A stretch of 32,000 bases of DNA from Nostoc punctiforme PCC 73102 (GCF_000020025.1 NC_010630.1:60001-92000); one strand, 5' to 3'. Positions 1 to 17,457 are shown, counted from the first letter of the stretch. The notes: generated by a model from the letters alone, not told the origin. Numbers and translations: made by a program.

Positions 1-3000
1 AAGTAGAGAATAAAGAACCAGCGATGGTGATACCATTATTAGCCTTAAGGTCAATATTGCCCGCATTTCCTGCTAGATTAAGATCGCCGTTACCACTTGA
101 AGAATCCAAAGAAATAGGTGAGGAAGAGTCCAAAACGCCAGTGATGTTGATGCTGTTACCAGCTTCAAGGGTAATTGCACCACCATTTCCTGCAATATAA
201 TTAGATGATTCCGAGGTAGAATCCAAACCATCAGCAATGTTGATATTGTTGCCAGCTTTAAGGGTAATTGCACCCCCATTTCCTGCTGTGTGATTAGAGT
301 CTGAGGAAGAGTCGAACCTACCAGTAATGTTGATGTCGTTGGCAGCTTTTAGGCTAATATTGCCCCCATTTCCCGCTGTGCCATCATCCTCATCATAATT
401 GAAATAAAGCGAGTAAGAGTACATACTACCAGTGCTAATGCTGCCATTGGTGGCTTCAAGAGCGATCGCTCCTCCGTTGGTGTTATTAGAGTCAGGAGCT
501 TGTTGTCCATTACTGCTGATGAGTTGAGTATTCACATCCCCTGATGCTGCCAAAAGACTAACTATACCCCCAATCCCATTAAACGGTTGTAATACAACAT
601 CTCCACCTATCGTAATTCCAGGAGGTACATTGCCAGTACCGTAAGTAGGTATTGAGCCAGAATTAACACCCCCGTAAGCTAGATTCGACTGTCCCGAACG
701 TAGAATTAACGCTGAACGAGTACTAAGGGTTTCTGTATCTGCTCCTATAGGAAAAGAAGTGATATTATCTGGTCTAGTAATATTGATGTCACCTTGGAAG
801 CGAATATCACCTGTGGCTTCAACTAATAGCGAGGCTCCTACATAATTGGCAGCAACATCAACATTGCTATTAGCACTGATAATTGAGCCATATTTACTAA
901 TAAAAGTGGCTAACCCTCCGGAGCCGCTACGAATCAAAACACTATCATCACTCTGAAAGTTACCATTGTCAGCAATTATTTGATCGGCAAGAAAAGTTAG
1001 ATTACCGCCACTTATAGAACCGATCTTAATGTTGCCATTGGCTGTTATGAGGCTAATATCTCCTCCATTTCTGGCTACGCTATCAGTAGCAAGAGAGTTA
1101 GAGTCCAAATTACTGGCGGCAATGTTACCGTTAAAAGCAATAATATCAATTGCACCCCCATCTCCTGCTATCTCACCACTGGAAAATGAGTATAAACTGC
1201 TTGTAGAAACGTTATTTTTAGAGGTAGATAGAGTAATCGCACCACCCTGACCTGCACTACCAAAATTAGCTTGTGAATTAGAATTCAAATTGCCACTGAT
1301 ATTGATGCCATTGGTAGATTCAAGAGTAATTGCTCCACCATTTCTGGCATTGCCAAACTCAGAGAGTGAGTCCGAACTCAAATTTTGTGCTTCAATCTTA
1401 CCGTTGGTAGTGCTAATGGTAACTATGCCTCCATTGGCTGCATTACCAACATTGTTAAGAGAAGAGGAGGATAAATCATCTTCAATATTGATGTCATCGG
1501 CAGCTTTAAGGCTAATTGCACCACCATTTCCGCCATTGCCAGAGCTAGAAAAGGAAGAAGAATTTATATTATAAATATAAATACCTTCAGAGGATTGAAG
1601 AGTAATTGCACCACCATTTCCGGCATTGCCAGAGCTAGAAAAGGAAGAAGAATTTATATTATCAGTATAAATACTAGCTTCAGAGGATTGAAGAATAATT
1701 GCACCACCATTTCCGGCATTGCCAGATTCAGAGTATGAGTAAGAGAGCAAATCATCTGTTTGAATATTGCCATTGGCAGTTAAAGCGATCGCGCCCCCCT
1801 GACCTGCACTGGCAAAACGAGAATCCGAAGAAGAGTCTAAATCGCCAGTGGTAATGTCCTTAGCAGATTCAAGGCTGATGTTGCCCCCATTTGCCGTACT
1901 GCCAGATTCAGAGTATGAGTAAGACAATAAATCATCTGTTTGAATATTGCCATTGGCAGTTAAAGCGATCGCGCCCCCCTGACCTGCACTGGCAAAACGA
2001 GAATCCGAAGAAGAGTCTAAATCGCCAGTGGTAATGTCCTTAGCAGATTCAAGGCTGATGTTGCCCCCATTTGCCGTACTGCCAGATTCAGAGTATGAGT
2101 AAGACAATAAATCATCTGTTTTAATACTACCGTTAGCAGTTAAAGCGATCGCGCCACCATTGTTAGCCCCATTTCTAGTATCTAGAGTTTGAGTAACAAT
2201 TGCTCCACCACTTTTAATTTCAATTGCGCCACCATTAATAGTAATTGCTTCGGTAGTGACATCCCCTGTTGTCGTTGTTAAGCTAACTTTTCCTATGAAC
2301 TCATCATTGATTGGGTTTAAGGTAAGGTCTGTTTTTAAGTTTATTTCTTGATTGCCAATAAGTGTGATATTTCTACCTGCTTGTAGCTGTCCTTGCAAAT
2401 CAAGTTTGTCTGCTACTAGTGTCAGGTCTTGCTGGGGTGCTAAATTTCCGCTATTGGTAATAGTTGCCCCTGCCTGACTTGCTCCATACTGCAATCCAGG
2501 CGTAATATTTATCGTCAGTAATGGTGGTGCTTGAGGATTAGTAGCACTAAATTCACTCCCATCAGGAAACTTAAAACTCTTTGCGGTAGTTGCAGAAAAG
2601 GAGCCACCAATATCTAACCGAGCATTCTGACCAAAAACAATACCATTGGGATTAAGTAGGAATAAGTTTGCTGTACCGTTAGCGCGAATTAAGCCATCAA
2701 TATTAGAAATTGAATTACCCGTTACTCGTGTCAGAATGTTTTGAATATCTAGTGGATTATTGAAGAAAGCTGTACTGCCATTAGGAACAGAGAATTCCTC
2801 AAAACTGTGGAACAGATTAGCGCCTCTTGTGGTTCCACCCTGAATATTGATGGTATTACCCTCTAATCTGACATTGGAATTATTTGGGAGAGTCCCATCT
2901 GGAGTGATTTGGGCAACTGAGCTATTTGCATACAAGGCGATGACCGCACTTCCAATGGCAATTTCTAGACCTTGCAACCAGTCTAGACGTGCAGTTCTAA

Positions 3001-3007
3001 TAGGCAT
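1..3007 (-). CDS. Two-partner-secretion (TPS / filamentous-haemagglutinin N-terminal domain) repeat exoprotein; the first ~1002 codons are present and the 3' end lies beyond the left window edge
   Basis: Absent from the supplied ORF track (no stop in window). I read the minus-strand frame line by line. ATG is at 3007-3005, with GGAGA 5 nt upstream and an in-frame upstream TAG at 3016-3014. There is no stop in any codon down to position 2. The N-terminus is [137 protein letters not shown], i.e. a signal peptide plus the conserved TPS secretion domain. The rest is Gly/Asn/Ala-rich beta-helix-type repeats (..GNGGAI..). Confidence 0.93.
1721..2160. repeat. 180-bp (60-codon) near-identical tandem repeat, ~2.4 copies, inside the TPS exoprotein gene
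   Basis: Lines 1741-1920 and 1921-2100 are identical apart from a few bases at 1744-1750. A third partial copy starts at 2101. Shorter 78-81-bp repeats lie at 1500-1740. Confidence 0.9.
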
Positions 3008-3120
3008 TGCACTCTCCTATAAAAATAAATTATCTTGAAATGCTCAATTAAGAGTATGGGTGTCAGCACAATTAGCTGATACGTAAGTGAGCATACTAGC
3101 AGATTCGCACTCCTGAATCA

Positions 3121-3256
3121 AGTGAATAAAATCAACTCACTGCTACCAATTAAAAATTAGGAAGGTTAGCAAAGCTCAAAAAGTCTGATTTGTAACAGTG
3201 AATCAAATTAGCTCACTGCTACTAATTAAGAATCAGATTCGAGGCAAACAAGCTTA
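3121..3256 (+). promoter_or_regulatory. Leader repeat copy 1 (136 nt) with two AGTGA-N11-TCACT boxes, upstream of the 82-aa peptide gene and divergent from the TPS gene
   Basis: Aligns base for base (~90% by eye) with 3538-3673. Boxes: AGTGA 3121-3125 / TCACT 3137-3141 and AGTGA 3197-3201 / TCACT 3213-3217. Each is followed by GCTACNAATTAARAATYAG. A 9-bp stem (3183-3191 with 3230-3238) encloses box 2. Confidence 0.6.
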
Positions 3257-3297: not shown

Positions 3298-3546
3298 ATG
3301 TCTAACATCAATATAGGGGACGACTTGTTTAGAGCTATAAAAGGTATTGCTAGTAATATTGATCCATCTGGATTAGTGAAAGCAGCCGATGGTATTGCCA
3401 CTATTGCAAGTGGTGCACTCAAGCTAGCAACTGGCGAGGAAGATGCTTTGACAGACATTACAAATGGGGCTGGCAAAGTTATAACTGGAACAGGTACACT
3501 TTGTGGCTTTATCAAATCAAATAGCGATAGTGATGATAGTGAATAA
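3298..3546 (+). CDS. 82-aa Gly/Ala-rich small protein with an acidic tail (glycine-zipper-like GxxxG/A runs); function unknown
   Basis: The ORF-track start at 3277 is TTG. ATG 3298 has a strong AAGGAG (3285-3290) 7 nt upstream. Product: MSNINIGDDLFRAIKGIASNIDPSGLVKAADGIATIASGALKLATGEEDALTDITNGAGKVITGTGTLCGFIKSNSDSDDSE. I recognise no family. Confidence 0.65.
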   Translation: MSNINIGDDLFRAIKGIASNIDPSGLVKAADGIATIASGALKLATGEEDALTDITNGAGKVITGTGTLCGFIKSNSDSDDSE

Positions 3547-3673
3547 ACTCATGTCACTGCTACGAATTAAAAATTAGGAAGGTTAGCAAAGCTCAAAAGC
3601 TCTGATTCCTAACAGTGAATAAAATCAAATCACTGCTACTAATTAAGAATCAGAGTCAAGGCAAACAAGCTTA
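3538..3673 (+). promoter_or_regulatory. Leader repeat copy 2 (136 nt), upstream of the GTPase gene; its first 9 nt overlap the end of the 82-aa ORF
   Basis: Boxes: AGTGA 3538-3542 / TCACT 3554-3558 and AGTGA 3614-3618 / TCACT 3630-3634. A perfect 9-bp stem pairs 3600-3608 with 3647-3655. Confidence 0.6.
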
Positions 3674-3731: not shown

Positions 3732-4559
3732 ATGGTTAAAGAAATTGAACAATTGGAAAAAGCACTCCCGATTATTCAACGAGAATTGAAAAAACGTCCT
3801 CCTACCATTGGTTTAATTGGACTTTCAGGGGTTGGCAAATCCTCAACAATTAACAGACTTTTTAAAACTAATTTGGCAACTAGTGACACAGTTGCTTGTA
3901 CCAAAGAGTTTGAGCATAAGGATATTGAACTTAAGCTTACTAATAGCACAATCCAAAATTATCCAGTTCAATTAAGAGTAATTGATGCTCCAGGTTTAGG
4001 TGAAGATATTAACCTCGATCCTCAGTATCTGCAAATGTATAAAGAGAATCTTGGGAGGTGCGACGTTATAGTTTGGGTTTTGGCGGCTCGTAATAGAGCT
4101 GTAGCTCTAGACCAACAGTATTTGCAGGAACTTGAAGAATTCCACAATAAAATAGTATTTGCACTACACCAAATAGACCTTGTTGAACCCCTTAACTGGA
4201 ACATTGAATATAATATTCCATCCCCCAAGCAAAAGAAGAACATTGAAGTGATACTTCAGGATAAAAAAGAGAAGCTTTCTGCTGTAATTAAAAAGGATGT
4301 AAAAATGATTGAATATTCGTCAAGAACTGGTTTTGGGCTTGAACAATTGTTTGCAGCCATAATTAATTCTTGCCCTGAAGAAAGAACCTGGATATTTAAT
4401 GGACTGAAAGGCTTTTCTTACAAAGAATATACACCTAAGATTGTGCTTGATGAACTAGAGAAACGTAATAACGGGAAAGTCAGCGTTGGAAAGAGTTGGC
4501 TAGAAAATTGGCTAGAAATATTAGAGAATTTGCTAGAAATGTTAAATCCATTTAAGTGA
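3732..4559 (+). CDS. P-loop GTPase, TRAFAC class (MMR_HSR1 / AIG1-Toc34-like G domain)
   Basis: 275-aa ORF. G1 is GLSGVGKSSTINRLF, a candidate G2 Thr lies in ACTKEF, and G3 is DAPGLGE. The G4 position reads HQID rather than NKxD. A G5-like YSSRTG is present. The C-terminal ~60 aa are Trp/Leu-rich and helical. AGGA lies ~11 nt upstream of the ATG. Confidence 0.8.
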   Translation: MVKEIEQLEKALPIIQRELKKRPPTIGLIGLSGVGKSSTINRLFKTNLATSDTVACTKEFEHKDIELKLTNSTIQNYPVQLRVIDAPGLGEDINLDPQYLQMYKENLGRCDVIVWVLAARNRAVALDQQYLQELEEFHNKIVFALHQIDLVEPLNWNIEYNIPSPKQKKNIEVILQDKKEKLSAVIKKDVKMIEYSSRTGFGLEQLFAAIINSCPEERTWIFNGLKGFSYKEYTPKIVLDELEKRNNGKVSVGKSWLENWLEILENLLEMLNPFK

Positions 4560-5213: not shown

Positions 5214-7598
5214 TTATTCACGTAAGGAATGGGTCGCAGTGGAAAATTCCCGACGACTTTGAATAAATAACACAACAACACCACTTGTAACCACACCAAA
5301 GGCAGTGGGAATAAATGGCAACCATAGCCCTTGCTGGAAAAGAGCGATCGCACAAACTCCATATAAGACAAAAACCATTGCAACTATGACCCATCCCCGA
5401 TCAAAGAGCGATCGCACACACCAAACAATTAGACTTCCACCTACAGACCATGCACATATCCAAATCATATCGCCCCAGAAAGGCAACACCCAAAGAATTA
5501 GACGTTCATCTAAAACTGCACTTAAAACTTGGCTGACCATTTGCGCTTGGATCAATACCCCTGGTGTTTCCTGGTAAGGTTGCTGTGCAGCAGAGTAAGG
5601 AGTAGACCAAGTATCGCTGATGGTGTTAGCTGTCACTCCCACGATCACTACCTTATCTTTAAGTAATTTCGGGTCAAATTTATTAGTCAATATATCTTCC
5701 AGGGAAACTCTCTGATAATCAGTATCGCGGTAGTTGACAAGTAATTGCATTCCGCCTAACTCAACTCCTTGTTGATAGCCACCACTGCGCCCAGGTTTTA
5801 AGCGTTTTAAGACTTTAGAGCCAAATTGTACATAATCTTTCTGAAATTCAGGTTGAATATTTTCCGCAAATAAGTAACGCGCAGCTAATTGTAACGACAG
5901 CGAATAAGGCGTTTTACAAGTTGAAGGAGGCTCTTGTGCCATCATCAAGATTTGGCGACGGACGATCCCATCTGGATCTTGAACTCCATCCGTAAAACCT
6001 TGACGTTCTACAGGTACGTCTTTTGGAGCTTTCACACCTTGGGGGTCATATTTGCGATCGCGGCTTTTGCAGACAACAACAACATTATCTTTACCAAGTT
6101 CAGTCGGAAGTTCGATTGGATTTAATTTATTTAGAGGGTCGGCAAAGTCTCTGTAAATATCTAATCCAATAACTCGCGGTTCATACTTTTGTAATTTATT
6201 CAGCAATGTTGCTAAAGTACTATCCGAAACTGATTTCCAACCTAGAGTTTTTTCAGGTCGAGATTGAATATCTTTTTCAGTGATTTCCACAATTATCAAT
6301 CTTGGCTCTGGGTCTTCCTTGGGTCGCAGCCGTAGCATTTGGTCAAAAGTTTGTAATTCGATTTTCTCAAACACTCCCAAGTATCTTAAACCCACTGTTG
6401 AAACAGCTACAATAAAAATACTAATTAGTACAGTCAAAAGTTGAGATTTTGGGTTAGCAATTTTACCTTTAGTCGCAATACCCATAAATTTAGTATCGCC
6501 AAAATTGCCTAGCAGTGCTAGCCACGTAGTCGGCACAGTTGTAGGATTTTGATAAATTACTGGTAACCAGCTAGCACAAGGAAATTCATTTTCCAATCCC
6601 TGAAGTCTTTCTCTTGCTTCTCGCACAGCCAAGTAAAATGGTTTGCTACCTGCAAAGGCGATAAGAAAGTGTTTTAAGAATTCCTGCGCTATTAAATCTG
6701 GCACTGCTTCCCGCATGACAATCGTTTGGGGAATATTTAAATCAGCTAAATTTCGTGCTAACCCAATTCCATCACAAGAATTGAAAATTACCAGTTGTAA
6801 ACCACGCCTAATTGCATTTTTCAGTGCATTTTTTAACTGTGGAATAGTTAAATTTTCTGTTTGATTGATGCCAATCTCTCCTATCTCTCCATTAGCAAGA
6901 CTAGTGCTATGTCCCGCAAAAAATAGGATATCCCAATCCTGTTTCCAAAGATATTCATCAAGTGTTTTACGTGATGGTTCGACAAGAAACGTAGTTTGGG
7001 CATCTGTTAAAGCTTCTAGCAAAGAGCTATCTTTATCAATATCAATACCGACTCTATTACCTAGAATCGCCAAAATTTTTACCTTACCTGCTGAAGATTT
7101 TAGTAATACATGATGAGATGCATACTCATGATTGCTTAAAGCTAATTCAGCTTTAGGATAATCTTCAAAAAAATGCCACAGATGCCAAGGCAAGCGATGT
7201 AGTAGAACTATATTCGTTTCAATAATAACTCTAATTTCATCATCCCGATTGAGTTGAGTACGCAACTGCCGCTCAATGTTCTGAAACGATTCAAATTGTA
7301 ACCAAGCATTGATATTTGCTTGTAGCTGTTGACACACTTCATCGAAGTCATTGATAGAAATATTGGTTATGTCTTGGGAATGCACTTTTATACGTTGATT
7401 GCGACCCAGACTTTGATGTACTGCTGTATAGAGTAACTGCCATCTACGGTAGAGTTCGCTTAATTCTGGTGCTGCTGGCAAACTCCCTGTTAATTTCATG
7501 GGGAAAAATTGATTATGATGCCAAAGTTGAGCTGTGACAACAAGAAATCCTTTATTTAGATCTCCTCCCAGAAAACTGAAGACGACTAGCTTACTCAT
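5214..7598 (-). CDS. CHAT (caspase-like protease) - TM - CHASE2 - 3xTM membrane protein
   Basis: 794-aa ORF. The N-terminal ~390 aa carry the caspase/CHAT dyad context: ILFFAGHS (His) and LQLVIFNSCDGIG (Cys). Next come a hydrophobic helix (LLTVLISIFIVAVSTVGL), a ~290-aa CHASE2-like segment (RLIIVEITEKDI..., VVIVGVTANTISDTWSTPYS) and three C-terminal hydrophobic helices. The ORF ends 16 aa after the last helix. Confidence 0.8.
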   Translation of the reverse strand: MSKLVVFSFLGGDLNKGFLVVTAQLWHHNQFFPMKLTGSLPAAPELSELYRRWQLLYTAVHQSLGRNQRIKVHSQDITNISINDFDEVCQQLQANINAWLQFESFQNIERQLRTQLNRDDEIRVIIETNIVLLHRLPWHLWHFFEDYPKAELALSNHEYASHHVLLKSSAGKVKILAILGNRVGIDIDKDSSLLEALTDAQTTFLVEPSRKTLDEYLWKQDWDILFFAGHSTSLANGEIGEIGINQTENLTIPQLKNALKNAIRRGLQLVIFNSCDGIGLARNLADLNIPQTIVMREAVPDLIAQEFLKHFLIAFAGSKPFYLAVREARERLQGLENEFPCASWLPVIYQNPTTVPTTWLALLGNFGDTKFMGIATKGKIANPKSQLLTVLISIFIVAVSTVGLRYLGVFEKIELQTFDQMLRLRPKEDPEPRLIIVEITEKDIQSRPEKTLGWKSVSDSTLATLLNKLQKYEPRVIGLDIYRDFADPLNKLNPIELPTELGKDNVVVVCKSRDRKYDPQGVKAPKDVPVERQGFTDGVQDPDGIVRRQILMMAQEPPSTCKTPYSLSLQLAARYLFAENIQPEFQKDYVQFGSKVLKRLKPGRSGGYQQGVELGGMQLLVNYRDTDYQRVSLEDILTNKFDPKLLKDKVVIVGVTANTISDTWSTPYSAAQQPYQETPGVLIQAQMVSQVLSAVLDERLILWVLPFWGDMIWICAWSVGGSLIVWCVRSLFDRGWVIVAMVFVLYGVCAIALFQQGLWLPFIPTAFGVVTSGVVVLFIQSRREFSTATHSLRE

Positions 7599-7705
7599 AA
7601 GTTAAGTAGACTTTGACATTCGTGATTAACTAATGACTAATAAATATCAATTCGACTAGGTTGTGCGTAACTATTAGAAAACCTGTTCAATCTGGCTCTT
7701 AATAA

Positions 7706-8953
7706 CTAAATCACGAAATTTTCTGTTATTTGGCAACTATCAAGAGTCACTTGGATGCTAAAACGTTCCCCCACTTCCCCATCAAATAGTTTCAATTGCA
7801 CGTACATATCTTGAACTCTTGCTTGTACTTCTTGAAGTATTTCCCCTTGCTCTGAAAGTAAAACTAGCTTGATATTAGCGGGTAGGTAAGGTTGATTACA
7901 AGCTGGATGTAGTTGCACACGAATACTAACTTGTTGGTTAACCTCTGGCATTAAGGCAACTAATAAGATAACTTTCTGTGCCTCTATTTGCATTCCCAAG
8001 TCAATCAATTTGGCGCGTTTGATAGCGGCAGCATTTAACCCAGAAGAACTACGAAAATTAAAAGCTAGGCTACTGGTATTTGGCTCAAAAAAAGTCTCTA
8101 TAGCTTGCCAAGAAGCATCGTAAATCTGAAGAAGCCAACGACTGAGATTCACTTGCACTTGGGAAAATTGCGTAGGCACAGCCCGTCGTAGACATCGCTG
8201 ATGCTGTTCATATAAGCATTGCCGCCATTGTTCATTATCCAGTAGTGCTGCCCAGGTTGTAAAAGGTACTGCTAGCCTCACAAATGTGACTGAAGAATCG
8301 CTTAACAGTTGCTGCATATTTTCTGCTTGAGCAGTCGATAATTCTGGTAGTGGAGCGATCGCAGCTTTCATCTCCTCTTTTATACAAAATTGGTAGGTTA
8401 TCCAAAAAGCATTAAGGTCTTTAATTAAGTACCGTGCATCTATACAATAAGTTCTATCTACTTGGTCATAGTGTGCCAGTGATTTAAGTTCCTGATGGGT
8501 TATATAACCCCAAATTCTTACCCACTCGCCATCTGGTGTGACTTGTACTGCTAAATAATAGTCTGCTACCCAACTGGGAATGTCTACCCATTCTTGAGGG
8601 ACTTCTAACTCGCTATCATCAATTGCCTCGCTGGGAATTAAAACAACTCGCTTTTCCTCTAACAGAATTGCTGTGCCATTGACAAATTCCCAAAAAGCAG
8701 GGATACCGGGTGAACTGTACCAAACACTTGCTTTTGAAACAGATTCAGTTTTTATCCAATTCAAAAACGCATAGAGGCAAATTTGATTTGTGTAAGCACA
8801 CCAGCGACTGCTAGGTGTAGCGTAAACTTGACTTTCTTGCCAAGCACTTTTCTGTAGTGATGGTGATATCTCTAACAATATTTCTTGCGGTTCTGTAAAA
8901 TCTAAAGTCATTTTTGCTACCTCATCTTTCATGATATCAACTTGATTCGCCAT
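7706..8953 (-). CDS. DUF1822-like protein (cyanobacterial family of unknown function)
   Basis: 415-aa ORF. Its ATG (8953) overlaps the end of the sigma-factor gene by 17 nt. Size, position next to a sigma factor, and the N-terminal pattern (..YATPSSRWCAYTNQICLYAFLNWIK..) match my recollection of DUF1822 proteins. This needs HMM confirmation. Confidence 0.55.
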   Translation of the reverse strand: MANQVDIMKDEVAKMTLDFTEPQEILLEISPSLQKSAWQESQVYATPSSRWCAYTNQICLYAFLNWIKTESVSKASVWYSSPGIPAFWEFVNGTAILLEEKRVVLIPSEAIDDSELEVPQEWVDIPSWVADYYLAVQVTPDGEWVRIWGYITHQELKSLAHYDQVDRTYCIDARYLIKDLNAFWITYQFCIKEEMKAAIAPLPELSTAQAENMQQLLSDSSVTFVRLAVPFTTWAALLDNEQWRQCLYEQHQRCLRRAVPTQFSQVQVNLSRWLLQIYDASWQAIETFFEPNTSSLAFNFRSSSGLNAAAIKRAKLIDLGMQIEAQKVILLVALMPEVNQQVSIRVQLHPACNQPYLPANIKLVLLSEQGEILQEVQARVQDMYVQLKLFDGEVGERFSIQVTLDSCQITENFVI

Positions 8954-10127
8954 ACTTAACTCTCAACCATTCTTCCAAAGCAGTACTCATATCTTTAACT
9001 TGGTTGGAATTTACAGAAATATTAAAGGTCTCTTGAGTCCATTGGATCAATGCTGTCAGCAAGGATTCTCTAGCTTTGAATAGCCTGCGAGAAACAGTAG
9101 GCTGACTCATTTGTAGGTGTTGTACAATCTGTGGCTGAGTTAGCCCCTGTTGGTAGTAAAGTTTAAGTATTTCCTTGGTTTTAGTCTCAAAAGTTTGTAA
9201 AGTTTTTAACAAGATAGCTTGAATCTGAGATTGTTGATTTTGTTGGTGTTGGGCATCCTCTTCGGCTATCATCTCAGCGATTAATGAATCAGAGGATGGA
9301 TCTGGCAAATCAAGAGTTGCTATGGAGTCATCTTCTGATATAGCTAAATTTAGAGAACTAACAGGTGGATAAAGATAAGCACGCACGTAAATAGCTGCTT
9401 GAGTTAACCACTGTTCAATTTTCTCTCTCGTGCATTGTGGAGTAGGTTGAGTTAATTGATTTTGTCGTTCGCGGTTGTAGAGGTTGGCAATAGCTTCCCA
9501 AATTTGGCGTTCTGGTTCTGGTAGTGCCTTTATGCCTCCTGGTTGGTTTTGCACATACAGTTCTTTGAAACAATTCCAGGCAAGCCGATATTGGGCAATG
9601 ATAGCAGGTGATAATCCAGCTTTATCCAGAGCTTCTAAGAACTGCTTTTTGCTTACTTTGCGTAACAATCCCCAATTTGTGCAAATATCAGCTTCCTTAC
9701 GTTGGCGTAAAATATCTTTTAGCCGACTGGGAAGTGCCATAGTAGCATAAGCTTTTAAACTAGAACATTTTTCTGGATTAAAGCTTTTGAGAACCGTTTC
9801 AATTTCAGCACTCGCCATTTGAAAGTAATCTGCCAAGCTGTATTGGCTATTGGTAAATTTAGCAATTGTTTTTTTAGCACTCCAGTAACTTGGTTCTTGT
9901 AAATAAGCAGACAAATGCATTCTGGCAAGGTGATTAGATTGCTTTCGCCAATGCTTGTGCCAATATAGTGCCCAAAAGTTTTCTGAGTTAGGGACTAACG
10001 GTGAATACTCCAAGCAATTTTGAATGCTTCGATGTAGTTTGATATCAATCAACCATTTGCTGAATCTGTCTCTTTCCAAATGAACAAAGGTTGAGAACAT
10101 CTCGGTAATTTCTTGACGAGGACGCAT
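8937..10127 (-). CDS. Sigma-70-family RNA polymerase sigma factor (divergent, long N-terminal part)
   Basis: The ORF-track start at 10133 is TTG; the first ATG is at 10127. A clear region-4 HTH is present: ILKLYYQQGLTQPQIVQHLQMSQPTVSRRLFKARESLL. An acidic linker (SEDDSIATLDLPDPSSDSLIAEMIAEEDAQ) precedes it. Confidence 0.8.
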   Translation of the reverse strand: MRPRQEITEMFSTFVHLERDRFSKWLIDIKLHRSIQNCLEYSPLVPNSENFWALYWHKHWRKQSNHLARMHLSAYLQEPSYWSAKKTIAKFTNSQYSLADYFQMASAEIETVLKSFNPEKCSSLKAYATMALPSRLKDILRQRKEADICTNWGLLRKVSKKQFLEALDKAGLSPAIIAQYRLAWNCFKELYVQNQPGGIKALPEPERQIWEAIANLYNRERQNQLTQPTPQCTREKIEQWLTQAAIYVRAYLYPPVSSLNLAISEDDSIATLDLPDPSSDSLIAEMIAEEDAQHQQNQQSQIQAILLKTLQTFETKTKEILKLYYQQGLTQPQIVQHLQMSQPTVSRRLFKARESLLTALIQWTQETFNISVNSNQVKDMSTALEEWLRVKYGESS

Positions 10128-10526
10128 AAGCAATACAAAAGACCCTTATCTTTTATCCGACATAACCTACGATAAACACCTTTTCTCCCTTAACACTACT
10201 ACAATTTTTGTATAAAATTATACTGTATAATTTCAGGGGTGAAACTTGTGCAGACTCAATGAAATGCACAAAATATAAAACGATAGAATCAGGGGTTGGC
10301 AACTTCTCGGGGAATAGCGAAGAGTTCTTTAATCCCAGATAAAATCTGGGACTACGTTATCTGTTGGATTCCCTTTCATGCTCAATCCAATTGTATTACT
10401 CTATTACATTCGACTAAACTTTCCAGCGTTCGCTGGAAAGTTTAGTATGCGCTCCGCCAGTGACGACGGATTTGGATGTAAGGCAAGTTCAAAAACGACA
10501 AATACCAACCGTTCCACATCGGGATA

Positions 10527-10735
10527 GAGATATCTGACCTGACTTTTCCCGTTAAGTCTTGAAAGGCTTACTGGCAAAAGATTTAAGAAACAGCACAGCA
10601 AATACGGTACAGTAATTGAAATCAGGTGCTAAAGGTGACAAGCAATGCTGGACTGGTGGGAGAAAAATTTTGCAACCTTAGAACTGGGCGATTACCTACG
10701 GTAGGCTTCTCTACGAGACGCTCCGCGAACGCCAA
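10527..10735 (-). mobile_element. Remnant of an IS end plus a short dispersed repeat, in inverted orientation relative to 13356-13430
   Basis: gacttttcccgttaagtct (10540-10558) is the reverse complement of agacttaacgggaaaagtc at 13397-13415. cttctctacgagacgctccgcgaa (10703-10726) is the reverse complement (1 mismatch) of ttcgcgtagcgtctcgtagagaag at 13356-13379. No intact transposase is present. Confidence 0.4.
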
Positions 10736-10794
10736 CGCCGATTAAATGAGCGTGCAATGTCGATAGGCTATGCTCTCAGTCTTGGATAAGGCAT

Positions 10795-11198
10795 TGCACT
10801 GTCGGAGATGATGGTAGTGTCCGCTTGTGGGATTTGCAAGGTCAGCAGTTATCTAAATTCACTGCCCATCAAGGTTCGGTTAGGAGTCTCAGTTTAAGCC
10901 CAAATGGTCAACAACTGGCTACTGCTGGAGAAGATCGTACTATGCGTTTATGGAATTTACAGGGTGAGCGGTTGGCAGAATTTTCAGCAAATTCTCGGAA
11001 CGTTATTTTTGGTCCAGATGGTCAACGATTAGCTACCGTAGGAGTTGATGGTAATGCTAAGTTAAGTTATGGCAAATTGAAACGTTTGAGGAATTGTTGA
11101 AGCAGGGTTGCGGTTGGGCGCGTGATTATCTGAAAAATAATTCTAATGTTAATGAGAGCGATCGCACTTTGTGTAATGATATCGGCACTCAAAAGTGA
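10795..11198 (+). pseudogene. 3' fragment of a WD40-repeat protein gene, 5'-truncated and frameshifted
   Basis: WD repeats are present (GDDGSVRLWDLQG, SPNGQQLATAGEDRTMRLWNLQG, GPDGQRLATVGVDGNAKL). A tandem 5-bp duplication aagtt|aagtt (11059-11068) shifts the frame. The conserved tail WQIETFEELLKQGCGWARDYLKNNSNVNESDRTLCNDIGTQK* continues in the +1 frame to 11198. Confidence 0.75.
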
Positions 11199-11259
11199 AC
11201 TATTCGCGCTACCGAAGGCTGCTTTCAACTTCGCACAGTCAAACACAACTGTTCAAGAA

Positions 11260-11388
11260 ATCATATTATGTCCGGTTAAACACTTGTCATTGCGAACGAA
11301 GTGAAGCAATCCCATAGACTTTGTGATTGCTTCACTTCGTTCCACTGCGTTGCACTCGCAATGACATAATTTGCCGGACATGATATCA
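11260..11388. mobile_element. Nested-hairpin MITE (~125 bp)
   Basis: Three concentric inverted repeats: atgtccgg (11268-11275) / ccggacat (11374-11381); tgtcattgcga (11285-11295) / tcgcaatgaca (11357-11367); cgaagtgaagcaatc (11297-11311) / gattgcttcacttcg (11325-11339). Confidence 0.7.
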
Positions 11389-11392
11389 AAAC

Positions 11393-11640
11393 CCTTGCAG
11401 GGCATACTAACAAGGTTTGGGCGCGAGTTTCTCACCCAATGGTAAAACAGTGGCTTCTGCATCCGGCGATGGGACAGTAATTTTGGGGAATTTTGATTTA
11501 GATAATTTATTAATTAATATGTGTGATTTAATACTAAAAATTCCAGTAAAAATTCTGAAGTTAATGTGAAAGATCGGAAATTGTGCAATCTAATTGGGAA
11601 TAAGCGTTCACCGATTTTTTGCACTAGTCAGCGACTCTCA
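11393..11640 (+). pseudogene. Second WD40-protein 3' fragment, multiply frameshifted
   Basis: It begins right after the MITE. GHTNKVW is in one frame, then SFSPNGKTVASASGDGTVILGNFDLDNLL, then in another frame KNSSKNSEVNVKDRKLCNLIGNK. This is the same C-terminal tail type as the fragment at 10795-11198. Confidence 0.5.
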
Positions 11641-11890
11641 CCAAGGGTTATAAATGTAGCTCTTATTTTCCTTGAGAATTTATATAAACTATTCCAACTA
11701 AGTGAATAGGTTGATTGAACCTGAACCTATTTAAAAGTGGAAGCAGAGAAAACAATTACCTTAAGGTGTTCTTTCTGCATTACATCGCACTTTACAAATA
11801 ACTGCTGTTGTTGCAGGTATCTCGGCAAATACCCAAAGTCAACCTATTAATTATTGACACTCTCACAAAATTACAAGAGGAATAACTTAA

Positions 11891-12130
11891 ATGTTGAATC
11901 AACGTGTTTTGGCTGGTCTATTGGCTGTTTCAACCGTAATGACTACTCTTGCTGTTAATGCTTCTCCTTCTTCTGCTGCTATTAGAATCGATGTTTCTCC
12001 ATCTTATACGGCTACCAAATTTACTAAGAAGATGACACTAGCTAAACGCCCTCCTAATATTTTGGAATGGAACCGAAAATACCGCAAGTTTTGTGCAACA
12101 GTTACAAAAGCTCCAATTTGTAAGAGATAA
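11891..12130 (+). CDS. Small secreted basic protein (79 aa), unknown function
   Basis: AGAGGA lies 8 nt upstream of the ATG. The N-terminal signal peptide is MLNQRVLAGLLAVSTVMTTLAVNASPSSA. The mature part is Lys/Arg-rich with 2 Cys. A hairpin follows the gene. Confidence 0.5.
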   Translation: MLNQRVLAGLLAVSTVMTTLAVNASPSSAAIRIDVSPSYTATKFTKKMTLAKRPPNILEWNRKYRKFCATVTKAPICKR

Positions 12131-12163
12131 TAACCTTTAAGTAAATTAAAAAACACCTACCTA

Positions 12164-12212
12164 AAAAGTGTACTGCAATTATTAAAACCAATACTTACAG
12201 TACACTTTTATT
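12164..12212 (+). terminator. Possible terminator hairpin after the 79-aa ORF
   Basis: 12-bp stem aaaagtgtactg (12164-12175) / cagtacactttt (12198-12209), followed by a T-rich run. The loop is large (22 nt), so confidence is modest. Confidence 0.35.
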
Positions 12213-12382
12213 AACTGTAGCCGTATGCGCGTAAGCAGGTATGTTCAATCTGTTGATTGCCAGTCATGGAATAAGTTATCAGGCTTATTTGATAAAAGCT
12301 TAGTAAATTGCTGAAAAGGGATAAATATTTCTAATATTCTGAAAAAAGATTTTTCAGAAATTAGCTTTTTGCTTTATATAGA

Positions 12383-12476
12383 TAGGACTTACGCACAACA
12401 TAACGAAAGTAGCAGTAATTCATGAATTACCGCTACCGAATAATCAACTTTTCAGTCATATTTTGCGTAAGTCCTA
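12383..12476. mobile_element. MITE (94 bp) with 13-bp perfect terminal inverted repeats and an inner palindrome
   Basis: taggacttacgca (12383-12395) / tgcgtaagtccta (12464-12476). The inner palindrome is gtagcagtaattca|tgaattaccgctac (12409-12436). Confidence 0.65.
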
Positions 12477-12520
12477 GTAGAAATGTTTAGTTGTTAGACA
12501 TTAGAATAGGAAAAATTTAA

Positions 12521-12889
12521 ATGTTAGACACATTTGGTGCGTTTGAACAAGGTTTTATCTTATCTCAAAAAGCACTTGATTATTTAATGGAATGGAATAC
12601 TGAAGCTGAAATTGCTTCTAGTATTTCTCAGACAGCCCAACAAGTTGTTGAAATATTGGTTAATGTTCCTGGTATGACAATGGCTCATAGTAGAGATTTT
12701 CAAAGATCAATGCCCCATTTTACGCTAAAAGATAAAACTGTGGTTAAAATTTACATAAATCCAGCACAAGTAAAACATATATTTTTAGCAGACTGCAACC
12801 ATAAAATGGTCTTTGGAGGTTACGTAGGTTGGATTCACACAAAAGAACTAAATAAAGCTATAGATAATATAAAGAAAAATTTTAACTAA
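12521..12889 (+). CDS. Hypothetical protein (122 aa)
   Basis: Open frame only; weak SD; I recognise no motif. Confidence 0.35.
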   Translation: MLDTFGAFEQGFILSQKALDYLMEWNTEAEIASSISQTAQQVVEILVNVPGMTMAHSRDFQRSMPHFTLKDKTVVKIYINPAQVKHIFLADCNHKMVFGGYVGWIHTKELNKAIDNIKKNFN

Positions 12890-13024
12890 TTACTAATTCG
12901 TAATAATCAAAGGGTGATAGTGATGATAGTTAAAAATCACGATCTAAATAATTGAGAAAAACCCTACTAAAAATGAAGAGATTTTTTTAGACCATCTATT
13001 AAAATCGCTAAATCAATCTCGATT

Positions 13025-13225
13025 CACAAAAATTGCTCTCAGGGGCAGCACCATCGCTACGTATGTTGCCGACAGGCAGTTGATTATGGTGGCGATAAGT
13101 GCCAGCAACTAGCAGGAGCCGCACTTGATAAGTTTGTGAGCCAGCAGGTTTTACAAGCGCTTGAGCCTGCGGCTTTAGAACTATCTTTGGAGACAGCATC
13201 CCATCTCGAACAAGAAGTTAGTTGG
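13025..13225 (+). pseudogene. Internal fragment of a large serine recombinase (zinc-ribbon / coiled-coil region)
   Basis: Translates HHRYVCCRQAVDYGGDKCQQLAGAALDKFVSQQVLQALEPAALELSLETASHLEQE. This is the Y-x-C...C-Q..(I/L)-x-G..LD..V...VL.AL.PAALE pattern of large serine recombinases. There is no N-terminal catalytic domain and no start codon. Confidence 0.5.
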
Positions 13226-13430
13226 GCTGTCGAAGCGTTGGCGAAGCCCGCCGTAGGCATCGCTCGTCTTGGCGGCTACCTAGAACATCGAAGCAAAACA
13301 CCAATTGGTATCCAGGTACTGTGGCGAGGTTGGTTAAAATTACACGACCTCTGTGTTCGCGTAGCGTCTCGTAGAGAAGGTTGGCAGCTTGCAAAAGAGA
13401 CTTAACGGGAAAAGTCAGATATCTGACCTC
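13226..13430 (+). mobile_element. 3' remnant of an IS4/Tn5-like IS (transposase C-terminal tail plus element end)
   Basis: Reads GIARLGGYLEHRSKTPIGIQVLWRGWLKLHDLC, the typical extreme C-terminus of IS4-family transposases. It is fused in frame to the recombinase fragment through a short dispersed repeat (gcgaagcccgccgtaggcatcgc, 13244-13266). The end sequence agacttaacgggaaaagtcagatatctgac lies at 13397-13426. Confidence 0.45.
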
Positions 13431-13672
13431 TACTAGCTCACCTCTTACCAGGGATCACAAAATTTACTCAATGTTATGAGTTTTTACATAGCAGTTAAAG
13501 TATTTGAGAATATCCGAAATGCCCAGTAAAGATTGATAACTGAGTTTAAGCTGTTAAAGCTTTTTTGGGACAGTTAGATCGAGTTTGGGGCAACGAGGTA
13601 AAAAAACTAGGCGAGAGGTGACAAATTGGGGTATAAGGTTACGTAAAGAACTATTATCGTCACCTAGTTTTT

Positions 13673-14641
13673 ATGTCCGGTCGCATCCTGAAAGTCAATA
13701 ATAATACTTTGCCTTCCGTGCTGGATTGGTGGACTCAGCCGGATGTGTTGGCGATGTTGTTGTCGGAGAAGCGTAGTGAGTCCACGCGGAAAGCTTATGA
13801 TCGGGACATTAAAGATTTTTTTACCAAGATGTTTGCGGTGGAATCGACGGCGGAATGGGTGGTGCGATTTTTGGCACTGCCGGGGGCGCAAGCACTCTTG
13901 TGGGTGGTCAAGTACAAAGCCAAGATGATTGAGCAGAGGTTATCGGAGGCCACGGTTAACCGGCGGTTGTCAGCTCTACGGGCGCTGGTGCATAAGGGTA
14001 GAGTGTTGGGGGTTTGTGGTTACACCTTGGAGGATATTAAGGGTGAGACTGTCATTAAATACCGAGATACCAGTGGTGTTACTCCCCAGGAATTTAAGCA
14101 GATACTTTTGACTTGCGATCCAACAACGGCGAAGGGGGTCAGGGATTATGCTTTGCTGCGCTTGCTTTGGGATAATGCGCTACGACGGGGGGAGATTGCG
14201 AAGTTAAAGATGGGGGATTTTGACCGTCAAAATAGCAAACTGCTGATTTTGGGTAAGGGAAGGGGTAGTCAACGGGAGACGATTGATTTAACTCCTAAGA
14301 CTAGGGATGCAATTTGTTATTGGTTGGCGTTTCGGGGGTTGGCATCAACTAAGGATGCGTTGTTTGTGGCGTTGGATCTGAATACGCCGGGGCATCCTTT
14401 GACGGATACGGGGATTGCCAAGATGGTAAGAACACGGGCGAAAAAGGCGAATATTAGTAAGCCGTTAAGTCCGCACCGCATTCGGCACAGTTCGATTACG
14501 GCGGCGTTGGATGCGGGGCAGAGTGTGCGGGAGGTGCAGAAACTCAGTCGGCACACCAAGTTGGAGACGTTAATGATTTATGACGATAATCGACAGCAGC
14601 ACCAGTTGAAGGTGAGTAGCGTGCTGGCGGATTTGGTTTGA
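13673..14641 (+). CDS. Tyrosine recombinase / phage-type integrase
   Basis: 322-aa ORF with the R..HxxR..(H)Y catalytic pattern: ALRRGEIAKL, SPHRIRHSSITAALDAG, LSRHTKLETLMIYD. It is markedly GC-richer than the flanks (35 of 60 G+C counted in line 13861-13920). Confidence 0.9.
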   Translation: MSGRILKVNNNTLPSVLDWWTQPDVLAMLLSEKRSESTRKAYDRDIKDFFTKMFAVESTAEWVVRFLALPGAQALLWVVKYKAKMIEQRLSEATVNRRLSALRALVHKGRVLGVCGYTLEDIKGETVIKYRDTSGVTPQEFKQILLTCDPTTAKGVRDYALLRLLWDNALRRGEIAKLKMGDFDRQNSKLLILGKGRGSQRETIDLTPKTRDAICYWLAFRGLASTKDALFVALDLNTPGHPLTDTGIAKMVRTRAKKANISKPLSPHRIRHSSITAALDAGQSVREVQKLSRHTKLETLMIYDDNRQQHQLKVSSVLADLV

Positions 14642-14903
14642 TGGTGTCTAGTTGCCAATCGGAACTAAGAGGAGTGCCAGTTTTTTGCGTACAACAAATA
14701 TGAAATACAGGTTTTTAGATATTCAGTGCTGGTGGCTGGTAGATAGCAACTTTGCCCCATACCCTTGTATTGCCTGAACTAGCTGTAAAATCGACATAAG
14801 CATCCAATGTTAGAATAACTGACCTTACTCCAATTGGTAGTATAGTTCTTACTTTAACCGCCAATATATAAGTTTAATAAAGTAGAATTTGGAGAATGGC
14901 GAA

Positions 14904-15290
14904 ATGATTATCAACCGACCCCAATGGCAACTATCACTAATAGAATCAGACAACAGAATCAGTGCGGAGTTAGTGGTGTTTGATGAGCAAATATTCTCCA
15001 ACATTTTGGCAGCAATCCAACGTGATTGGCAGCAGGTGGTTCAGGACTTCTACACTGCTGAAAGAAGAAATTTCAACACCATTACTCCACTTGGTGATTT
15101 AGAGACAATTGAAATTGTTCAGCCGCTAACAATCAAAGTCAAAGATGATTATATTATGGGCAGGAATCAGGTAAGTTGTTTGCTGTGGGCGATGAGAGAT
15201 TTACTTGAACCTAGAGAGTCTGTTGAACTACGTAAAATTTGCAACTCTCGCAAAAAACCTGACAGTAATATTTTTCAATTGCACGGTTGA
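14904..15290 (+). CDS. Hypothetical protein (128 aa)
   Basis: The ORF-track start at 14889 is TTG. ATG 14904 lies 9 nt after GGAG (14891-14894). I recognise no motif. Confidence 0.4.
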   Translation: MIINRPQWQLSLIESDNRISAELVVFDEQIFSNILAAIQRDWQQVVQDFYTAERRNFNTITPLGDLETIEIVQPLTIKVKDDYIMGRNQVSCLLWAMRDLLEPRESVELRKICNSRKKPDSNIFQLHG

Positions 15291-15425
15291 GCTTAATCTA
15301 ACTCGGCAAGCAGTTCATCGCCAATTAAAAGACTGAGAAGCAAACAATAATCATCTAAGAAATGTCTAAAAAGCTCTGTTCACAGACATTTTATTCACGA
15401 TTATACATTGCTGTTTGACACAAAT

Positions 15426-16280
15426 TCATATATTAGTAACTATCTGATTTTCTGACGGATGTTTGTAATGAGGCTGATTAATCGAGGGACATAAATAGTC
15501 AAAAGAATTATCAGTATGTTCAAGTTGCATATTCCGGGGTGCATTTAAAGCAATGACTGCATCGCCAATCTTTTCACAACGCTTGCAGTCACAGGCTGCT
15601 GCTCCTTGAGCCAATATCTCTTTTAGGTTACTGGCAATATTGATAAATCCCCTAGTTTTTGAATTTTTGGGTAGTTGGGAGGCAATTTGAACTAATTGCT
15701 CAATTTCTGAAGGGTATTGCACTAACAGAAACTGGTCAATTTGACATTTGCTACGACAAGTCTTTACATCTCCAAATTCATCAGCAAACTGCTTTAATCC
15801 TGTTGCTGCATTTTGCAAATCAAGGTTAAGCGCTCCTTGGGCGCGGGCGCAGGCGGTAGGATCTGTGTTGGTATTGTTAAACTTTTTTCTGAGTAGAAGT
15901 TCAAAACGTTTGATATAAATTCCTAAAATAGCAAGGGCTTTTTCTTTATCTTGGGGACTGCTAAAGTTAAGTTGATGCGTGCTAAAAAGTTGGGGTATAA
16001 GTTGTAAAATAGCTTTGAGTTCGCTAGTCTTAAATCTATTACTCCACAGAGTAATAGCATCTCCAATATTGTTGATAGTTTCTAGACGCAGGACAAAGTA
16101 GAAGGAAATAAGATTAATCAGATAACTTCGCTTCATCTCCATCTGAACATAGTTAGAGATATAAAGCGGTTGGTCAGTAAATTGAGATTCAAAATACTGC
16201 TTATAGACTTGTGTACCTAGTAGCAGAGAACGTAGAACCGAGGTGTCTAAAAAGTGTTGAGGAACAGAATTATCATCCAT
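15426..16280 (-). CDS. PIN-like nuclease-fold protein with a ~130-aa Cys-containing helical insert
   Basis: 284 aa. The PIN acidic residues are in their usual contexts: FLDTSVL (D12), YVQMEMK (E48), KIGDAVIALNAP, LEHTDNSFDYLC. About 185 aa (instead of ~50) separate the second and third acidic positions, and that stretch contains TACARA, KTCRSKCQ and AACDCKRCEK. Confidence 0.5.
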   Translation of the reverse strand: MDDNSVPQHFLDTSVLRSLLLGTQVYKQYFESQFTDQPLYISNYVQMEMKRSYLINLISFYFVLRLETINNIGDAITLWSNRFKTSELKAILQLIPQLFSTHQLNFSSPQDKEKALAILGIYIKRFELLLRKKFNNTNTDPTACARAQGALNLDLQNAATGLKQFADEFGDVKTCRSKCQIDQFLLVQYPSEIEQLVQIASQLPKNSKTRGFINIASNLKEILAQGAAACDCKRCEKIGDAVIALNAPRNMQLEHTDNSFDYLCPSINQPHYKHPSENQIVTNI

Positions 16281-17200: not shown

Positions 17201-17349
17201 AACACAATTCTTTTAAGTAATATTTGTGTGGAATTCGAGGGAATGCTCCTGCTCAATGAGTTTTTCCTAGTAGTAGGACAACACTACCCACGATGGTTAA
17301 TCATACTCTTTGTTCCTGGCATGGCCTGTGTCAACTCTATGGCGTACTA

Positions 17350-17377
17350 TTGACATACAAACTCTGTAAGTTAGTAT
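17350..17377 (+). promoter_or_regulatory. Sigma-70-type promoter for the partition operon
   Basis: TTGACA (17350-17355), a 16-nt spacer, then TAGTAT (17372-17377). The spacer is occupied by the left arm of the inverted repeat AACTCTGTAAGTT. Confidence 0.5.
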
Positions 17378-17446
17378 CTTTGTTACTTACAAACTTACAG
17401 AGTTACGAACAAACAGAGTTACGAACAAACAGAGTTACAAAGTTAC
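17357..17446 (+). promoter_or_regulatory. Iteron / operator-centromere-like cluster upstream of parA
   Basis: 13-bp inverted repeat aactctgtaagtt (17360-17372) / aacttacagagtt (17392-17404) with a 19-nt spacer. It is followed by 16-bp direct repeats cagagttacgaacaaa at 17398, 17414 and (partial) 17430. Confidence 0.6.
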
Positions 17447-17457
17447 GGAGTCAGGAT

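Follow-up and report, generated by a model that had tools for sequence, protein, structure and literature searches.

A conserved sigma factor, DUF1822 and CHAT-CHASE2 gene trio of Nostoc punctiforme as a candidate protease-gated transcription switch

We found that a stretch of 32,000 nucleotides (nt) from Nostoc punctiforme PCC 73102 (NC_010630.1:60001-92000; the window below, with positions counted from its first letter) carries a conserved trio of genes, encoding a sigma-70-family factor, a DUF1822 protein and a membrane protein that joins a caspase-like CHAT domain to a CHASE2 sensor. The trio is an instance of a computationally described system, the 'EACC2-caspase + ECF sigma + DUF1822' neighbourhoods reported in silico in the passages of Kaur, Iyer, Burroughs, Aravind eLife 2021 (PMC8195603) that treat them. 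The trio itself is thus already described, and its association with secretion cassettes and with an adjoining tandem element is new here. By analogy with known protease-gated sigma factors, and as a reading that falls somewhat short of an even chance, we propose that DUF1822 would be anti-sigma-like, that a cue sensed by CHASE2 would lead CHAT to cut DUF1822, and that the sigma factor would then activate adjacent secretion and antagonism cassettes. The features of the trio in the window are:

8937..10127, minus strand: sigma-70-family factor, 396 amino acids (aa), ACC85397
7706..8911, minus strand: DUF1822 protein, 401 aa from the conserved Met, ACC85396
5214..7598, minus strand: sensor-protease, 794 aa, ACC85395, with CHAT and CHASE2
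6909..6911, minus strand: codon of the catalytic His230, motif FFAGHS
6774..6776, minus strand: codon of the catalytic Cys275, motif FNSCDG

The original prediction read three co-directional minus-strand genes at 5214-10127, and the listing of open reading frames (ORFs) bears this out, in the order sigma, DUF1822, protease-sensor. The longest sigma ORF spans 8937..10133 with a TTG start, whereas the start shared by the orthologues is the ATG at 10127. We place the start there because the alignment of 76 sigma upstream regions closes with the invariant ...TTGCTTATG and because the N. punctiforme database protein ACC85397, to which the window sigma is 100% identical, has 396 aa; this ATG also coincides with the end coordinate given originally. 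The tight packing described for the trio is borne out. The gap of 107 nt between the DUF1822 and protease genes is as described, whereas the 17-nt overlap between the sigma and DUF1822 genes holds for the longest DUF1822 ORF only (7706..8953, 415 aa). Since most orthologues start at the equivalent of Met15 (ATG 8911, with GAGG in front), the junction is probably a 25-nt gap instead. The RefSeq entry WP_234711211 gives the CHASE2 protein 761 aa, omitting 33 N-terminal residues (the region concerned is window 7500-7598, minus strand). Orthologues conserve these 33 residues, and the 794-aa form is therefore probably the correct one.

We examined the conservation of the trio in an orthologue set of 80 Nostocales loci, obtained from a DUF1822-anchored genome scan and showing 56-90% identity. 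The sigma and DUF1822 genes are present in 80/80 loci and the N-domain of the protease follows downstream in 78/80, the two exceptions being contig ends, while 74 loci gave a CHAT match and 75 a CHASE2 match. In 79/80 loci sigma comes before DUF1822, and in L072 it lies downstream; the order sigma, DUF1822, protease is kept in all but L072 and L075, which are locally rearranged. This arrangement is far beyond chance. The neighbourhood survey thus supports the predicted trio, which stays together in 78 of the 80 loci, with a middle protein that belongs to DUF1822 and orthologues that retain the CHAT His/Cys dyad. Housekeeping-type flanks are not conserved beyond sub-clades. The window flanks (the GTPase gene and ORF 12521) recur in one locus each, and a MutL-adenosine deaminase-NAGPA flank is common to 14 loci. 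The module is not confined to plasmids, since several orthologous loci lie on chromosomal records of multi-megabase size.

Paralogous systems, which tblastn detected in plasmids, in annotated regions and in one metagenomic locus, have DUF1822 proteins of 26-42% identity. The profile of the sigma orthologues matches the proteins of Rippkaea (E 1e-126), PCC 7120 (E 3e-117), the locus L087 (E 1.5e-47), Nostoc C052 (E 2e-39) and A. cylindrica (E 4e-35), in each of which the matching gene stands directly upstream of DUF1822; the gene upstream of DUF1822 in Stanieria does not match this profile. The protease partner is a CHAT-CHASE2 protein in C052, A. cylindrica and PCC 7120; in PCC 7120 alone its gene is on the other strand, upstream of sigma. 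In Stanieria the partner is a 583-aa CHAT protein lacking CHASE2, in L087 a separate 184-aa N-domain and a CHAT protein of 726 aa, which shows a weak periplasmic-binding-protein-like match below threshold, and in Rippkaea a Peptidase_C14 protein. Judged from these sequences, a constant core of sigma and DUF1822 is combined with a caspase-fold protease and a variable sensor. Several paralogous sigmas are longer, at 490-520 aa, and carry a second sigma4-like copy at the C-terminus (L081 4428-5996, L082 4348-5871, L087 5508-6983), with profile positions ~302-391 matching twice.

Next, we investigated the sensor-protease. The original prediction of a CHASE2 sensor and a cytoplasmic CHAT domain in one protein agrees with the Pfam matches and the hydropathy profile. 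CHAT matches at residues 201-338 (E 7.6e-12; 45.7 bits against a gathering score of 24) and CHASE2 at residues 397-722 (E 1.8e-64, 218 bits). The order along the protein is an N-domain (aa 1-180), CHAT (aa ~181-360), a first transmembrane segment, CHASE2 and three C-terminal transmembrane segments; by hydropathy these lie at 386-404, ~701-727, 736-754 and 761-779, of which the segment at ~701-727 was called by eye, below the threshold of the scan. This layout predicts that CHAT, within the N-terminal ~385 residues, is cytoplasmic and that CHASE2 is outside the cell. Most CHASE2 receptors carry their output domain at the C-terminus, whereas in the window protein it is N-terminal. The His/Cys context, which had been read as intact, is so: the W222-S231 segment with His230 and the FNSC275 motif are at least 98% identical in 70 full-length orthologues, and the dyad is retained in 4/4 aligned CHAT paralogues. 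By its Pfam match and these motifs the 794-aa protein is a predicted CHAT peptidase of clan CD, with a caspase fold. The N-domain of ~180 aa is homologous across the paralogues (E 1e-65 to 2e-32), including the separate 184-aa protein of L087 (E 2e-13). It is EACC2-like, and its identity with EACC2 we infer from the description in Kaur et al., whose passages on these systems give a constant EACC2 alpha+beta domain with a caspase and a variable C-terminus, naming CHASE2. With that description the window protein shares the transmembrane segments and CHASE2 as variable C-terminal sensor, and the adjacent sigma and DUF1822 genes. A PDB sequence search with the N-domain and CHAT region gave no match.

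The sigma factor matches TIGR02937 over residues 76-362 (E 4e-28). As had been predicted, it has a normal region-4 helix-turn-helix (HTH), matched by Sigma70_r4_2/r4 at residues 307-358, and Sigma70_r2 is detected in its orthologues and in the Rippkaea version. Its layout comprises an N-terminal extension (1-~70), sigma2 from ~76, a helical module at ~160-252 in the position of sigma3, an acidic disordered linker (260-280), the sigma4 HTH and a conserved C-terminal helix. The AF2 model is all-helical (pLDDT 76.3), with low-confidence stretches at 1-26 and 39-47, where the sequence is strongly conserved, and in the acidic linker. The top Foldseek matches of the model are the three-domain sigmas SigB, sigma32, sigmaS and WhiG, over ~300-390 columns, and for this reason the insert of ~90 aa is placed where sigma3 would be, while Pfam Sigma70_r3 has no match in this middle module and a PDB sequence search returned the HTH only. 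An extracytoplasmic function (ECF) sigma of two domains has no sigma3 and ~180-220 aa; the window protein, at 396 aa and with the helical module between sigma2 and sigma4, looks in its model like a three-domain sigma and not a minimal ECF factor (group 4), and the label 'ECF' given to it in the passages of Kaur et al. on these neighbourhoods is loose. The original prediction saw no recognisable anti-sigma gene nearby, and among the neighbours of the trio that were scanned Pfam likewise returned no anti-sigma domain.

The middle protein was predicted to be DUF1822-like, and it matches PF08852 over its full length (profile positions 1-370 of 370, E 2.1e-107). The AF2 model (pLDDT 75.6, pTM 0.67) has an alpha/beta N-domain (1-175), a helical part (190-245), a disordered part (245-294) and a C-terminal beta-sandwich (297-400); the linker at 245-294, numbered in the 401-aa form, is Q-rich and variable. 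An exhaustive profile search gave 2,343 representatives of the family at 50% identity. With few exceptions these are proteins of 380-500 aa that stand alone, and among the members seen that carry an organism name all are cyanobacterial. Using the distant DUF1822 of Stanieria as the seed of a further homologue search yielded 2 matches only. One representative, P0309, is a fusion in which a LuxR/sigma4-type HTH (4-57) and a TRADD-like_N domain (175-237) precede DUF1822 (248-625); its domain content connects DUF1822 with a DNA-binding module of sigma4 type and with the TRADD-N/EACC2 systems found in the relevant passages of Kaur et al. In P0274 and P0122 (by Pfam) and in P0286 (by reading the sequence), HEAT repeats are inserted in the linker, which may explain the earlier description of DUF1822 as a TPR repeat protein.

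In the mechanism that we favour, soluble DUF1822 would keep the sigma factor inactive in the resting state, its conserved N-module binding the disordered N-terminal extension of sigma and/or sigma4. CHASE2 would sense an extracytoplasmic cue and activate cytoplasmic CHAT, which would cut DUF1822, most plausibly in the linker, disordered and of variable length, that joins the N-module to the beta-sandwich, and the freed sigma would bind RNA polymerase. The output would be the flanking cassettes, made up either of a TPS exoprotein with TPR-CHAT and DUF928 or of a C39-ABC/HlyD exporter with double-glycine-leader proteins; in the window it would be the TPS gene and two small operons behind a tandem 71-77-nt element. 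We infer the step in which CHAT cuts DUF1822 from gene order, from the analogy with Craspase and CalpL, and from the one HTH-TRADD-N-DUF1822 fusion. The DUF1822 gene directly follows the sigma gene, as the gene of an anti-sigma factor classically follows that of its sigma, and this order together with P0309 lends indirect support to a candidate anti-sigma role. A proposal with the same logic was made independently, in silico, in the passages of Kaur et al. on these systems.

Three systems with experimental evidence provide the analogy. In Craspase (type III-E, Cas7-11), Csx29, a TPR-CHAT protein, cleaves Csx30 and CASP-sigma/RpoE is released. In a type III CRISPR system, the SAVED-Lon protease CalpL cleaves CalpT and CalpS is released. 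In the third, SAVED-CHAT acts on PCaspase, which in turn acts on PCc-sigma. The proposed likeness to Craspase is that a sensor-switched CHAT protease cuts a soluble partner that holds a sigma factor, and transcription changes. The trigger of Craspase is the binding of target RNA by the CRISPR effector, whereas that of the window system would presumably be an extracytoplasmic cue received through CHASE2. Furthermore, Craspase has cas genes (Cas7-11/gRAMP, Csx30/Csx31), while the scan of window ORFs detected no Cas domain in those covered, and the window protease is membrane-anchored, unlike Craspase. No sequence relationship between DUF1822 and Csx30 was detected, and no direct comparison of the two was made. 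CalpL/CalpT/CalpS and SAVED-CHAT share with the proposal a protease that a signal activates and whose target is an anti-sigma-like protein, which it cleaves, or a sigma factor of the same operon; they differ from the window system in protease family (Lon) or in trigger (cyclic oligoadenylate), and their sensors are cytoplasmic. In classical regulated proteolysis of ECF sigmas (RseA-DegS-RseP), an envelope signal also leads to sigma release, and the regulator gene follows the sigma gene. There the anti-sigma is a transmembrane protein and the serine and metallo proteases are separate, whereas the putative anti-sigma of the window is soluble and the sensor and cysteine protease form one membrane protein.

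Several observations weigh against this mechanism. The CHAT match covers profile positions 123-272 of 289 only, the C-terminal half. DUF1822 has no PDB sequence homologue, Pfam finds DUF1822 as the sole match in the protein and no anti-sigma domain, and Foldseek of its model against the PDB gives nothing below 1e-3, with generic Ig-like beta-sandwich matches and no anti-sigma. Because of this null result and the AF2 layout, DUF1822 is, as modelled, neither a TPR protein nor of a known anti-sigma fold; the passages of Kaur et al. on these neighbourhoods call it TPR, in contrast to the alpha/beta, helical and beta-sandwich parts modelled here and the HEAT insertions of some members. The linker has no motif common to the paralogues, the FNFRS of the orthologues being lost in the Rippkaea and PCC 7120 versions, so that no specific cleavage site can be named. 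The conserved extensions of the sigma factor could themselves be the regulated element. The sequences 5' of the sigma gene give a poor alignment with no shared promoter motif, and autoregulation is for this reason not evident. A leader of ~45 nt (GATAGTTGCTTAAGTTCGGATCAATTTAAATTTTTAAyTGCTTATG) recurs just 5' of the sigma ATG in many loci and is absent from the window, and a sigma70-like promoter upstream of the window gene was dropped, its -35 fitting 2/6 positions only. Finally, the tandem element occurs in 25/87 sources only, is oriented away from the trio and is only putatively a target of this sigma.

The alternative that survives best, an unlikely one in our judgement, is that the sigma factor is itself the CHAT substrate, its N-extension or C-helix being an inhibitory pro-sequence and DUF1822 an adaptor to the membrane protease. 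In Bacillus, SpoIIGA and SpoIVFB process pro-sigmaE and pro-sigmaK. Residues 1-~70 of the sigma factor are highly conserved in 42 orthologues yet have low pLDDT, the protein has a conserved C-terminal extension past sigma4, and DUF1822 has no known anti-sigma fold, all of which would suit a pro-sigma. The N-extension is also retained in Rippkaea despite its C14 caspase (the profile aligned over 1-394), which can be turned either way: an extension that stays constant while the protease type changes would bind DUF1822 rather than the protease. Moreover, the order and tight coupling of the sigma and DUF1822 genes are typical of sigma/anti-sigma pairs, and P0309, with DUF1822 in cis with a DNA-binding module, fits a direct regulator better than an adaptor.

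We give a lower probability still to autoproteolysis, in which self-cleavage would free or activate the cytoplasmic module, and sigma and DUF1822 would serve a later transcription step. In the passages of Kaur et al. on these systems, a stimulus is proposed to set off (auto)peptidase activation, with transcription through sigma as the last step, on the strength of the constant EACC2 and caspase architecture. In the sensor-protease, aa 361-400 (the linker and first transmembrane segment) are the least conserved (mean 0.49 in 70 orthologues) and would be a plausible self-cleavage region, and in L087 the N-domain is a separate protein. No conserved cleavage motif was seen, however, and self-cleavage leaves the strict coupling of sigma and DUF1822 unexplained; it is also compatible with cleavage of DUF1822. 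The original prediction took the members of the trio to be experimentally unstudied. The neighbourhood and the route from stimulus through caspase to sigma are present in those passages, while no experimental study of the trio was found in the literature searched, in which two papers only name DUF1822, and our literature search on the trio accessions returned no citing paper.

An effector role is quite improbable. CHAT would here be a toxic, broad-specificity effector (abortive infection, or PCaspase-like cell death), with sigma and DUF1822 controlling its expression or acting in parallel. Such systems are placed among counter-invader conflict systems in the passages of Kaur et al. that deal with them, PCaspase offers a precedent, and the window has a plasmid or mobile context, with an integrase and ParA. 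PADLOC, however, matched no defence system, with weak sub-threshold Csa3 matches to the HTH only, several loci are chromosomal, 14 have the MutL-adenosine deaminase-NAGPA flank in common, and an external CHASE2 with a membrane anchor suits signalling better than the sensing of an intracellular invader. It is very improbable indeed that the adjacency is meaningless and that CHAT-CHASE2, with no part played by sigma and DUF1822, processes or regulates TPS or type I secretion system (T1SS) cargo. A second CHAT protein (TPR-CHAT) and DUF928 are repeatedly found with TPS genes, so that CHAT may serve that secretion, but secretion cassettes vary or are missing where the trio stays together, and in the paralogues the set of sigma, DUF1822 and a caspase-fold protease persists even where there is no TPS gene.

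We then examined the surroundings of the trio, which bear on what DUF1822-gated sigma activity would control. In the window, the region beyond the protease gene contains:

2..3016, minus strand: TPS-domain (TpsA/FhaB-like) exoprotein, PF05860 E 2.9e-55, N-terminus at ~3016, running off the window start
3017..3115, minus strand: conserved 5' region of the TPS gene, GCTGAyACCyATAy ... TATAGGAGAGTGCAATG, kept upstream of TPS genes in many loci
3122..3250, plus strand: tandem element, two copies, GTGAATAAA-N8-CACTGCTACCAATTAAGAATCAG, upstream of the MSNIN ORF
3298..3546, plus strand: 82-aa ORF 'MSNINIGDD...', sharing only its start and 5' untranslated region with double-glycine-leader cargo genes elsewhere
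3539..3670, plus strand: tandem element, two further copies, upstream of the GTPase gene
3732..4559, plus strand: small GTPase (MMR_HSR1/septin/AIG1-like), with the element in front, conserved only in the closest locus, L001
5125..5161, plus strand: stem-loop of 17 bp followed by a T-run, terminator-like, between convergent gene ends, the T-run being scored on the plus strand only

Neighbours were counted by clustering all flank ORFs of the 80 loci. TPS-domain exoproteins lie near the trio (within 8 kb) in 37 loci, C39-peptidase ABC exporters in 31, HlyD in 29, small double-glycine-leader proteins starting 'MSNIN' in 19, TPR-CHAT in 18 and DUF928 in 14. A cassette of TPS/TPR-CHAT/DUF928 or of C39-ABC/HlyD (T1SS) is present in 68/80 loci, and in 58/63 where at least 4 kb of sequence lie downstream. 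The TPS gene is often downstream on the same strand, following the protease gene by 43-311 nt in nine loci. The original prediction had cast the TPS exoprotein as output or ligand source; these counts give the link statistical support, with the TPS protein as the likely output of the trio. No gene for a TpsB (POTRA/ShlB) transporter was found among the recurrent neighbour clusters, the window being cut off upstream of the TPS gene. Within the TPS gene, tandem repeats of 90-93 nt (window 120-380 and 1513-1726) mark a repetitive passenger domain. The MSNIN genes elsewhere (L005, L009, L010, L015, L019, L026, L051, L057, L058) encode a double-glycine leader (…AATCSGG) and adjoin C39-peptidase ABC and HlyD genes; the body of their proteins is beta-gamma-crystallin-like, as judged by eye only.

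Upon examining the tandem element, we found 4 copies in the window (at 3122, 3198, 3539 and 3615) against 0 expected from shuffles. Upstream of MSNIN genes it forms arrays of 2-5 copies with a period of 71-77 nt and the invariant blocks GTGAATAAA and CACTGCTACCAATTAAGAATCAG. The 87 sources searched are each a DUF1822-anchored locus or the window itself, and those that carry the element hold 72 distinct units. Rfam gave no match to the element at the gathering or E<=1 thresholds and its covariation term is 0.02; an RNA motif is thus not supported, and a DNA-level promoter or operator array is the more likely candidate. Where a TPS gene adjoins, the element units face away from it, and the TPS 5' region with the tandem element forms a candidate bidirectional control region. 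The sole PLSDB plasmid with the element, Nostoc UHCC 0926 pn1 (L086), also carries the orthologous trio. Between the two (8580-16200, plus strand) it encodes duplicated acidic small proteins, an S8 subtilase and a Phage_lysozyme+PG_binding+YkuD protein, a gene set that looks like antibacterial cargo. The flanking TPS/T1SS cassettes and the tandem element are not mentioned in the passages of Kaur et al. on these neighbourhoods.

Should DUF1822 prove to be a partner that is cleaved to free a dedicated sigma factor, it would represent a new anti-sigma class, and CHAT/caspase-gated transcription, so far demonstrated only in CRISPR type III, would be a general bacterial principle with an extracellular sensor. 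The consistent secretion and antagonism neighbourhood suggests what the circuit controls. A more far-reaching version, possible but somewhat doubtful as a whole, is that a membrane-anchored CHAT switch, activated by an extracellular cue, would destroy a new soluble anti-sigma class, DUF1822, firing a three-domain sigma that drives a swappable secreted arsenal (TPS, double-glycine-leader proteins, lysozyme/subtilase) from the GTGAATAAA-N8-CACTGCTACCAATTAAGAATCAG bidirectional region; this would be a cyanobacteria-specific danger-sensing weapon circuit, and a non-CRISPR ancestor or analogue of Craspase-type sigma control. N. punctiforme PCC 73102 is genetically manipulable, which makes the hypothesis directly testable.

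The remaining features of the window lie upstream of the trio:

13673-14641, plus strand: tyrosine recombinase
17293-18087, plus strand: ParA-type ATPase
22034-31993, minus strand: non-ribosomal peptide synthetase (NRPS), 3319 aa, three modules, with Condensation, AMP-binding, PP-binding x3 and a terminal Thioesterase

The recombinase and ParA, taken with the 123,028-bp contig on which ACC85397 lies, fit a plasmid context. The 3319-aa ORF was considered as a TPS protein and rejected, its domains being those of an NRPS. Additionally, short ORFs of WD40 type lie upstream of sigma on the plus strand, at 10825-11100 (Pfam WD40, 5e-15) and 11417-11569 (by eye); a WD40-repeat gene has probably decayed here to these pieces, and kinase-WD40 proteins occur near the trio in 8 loci.

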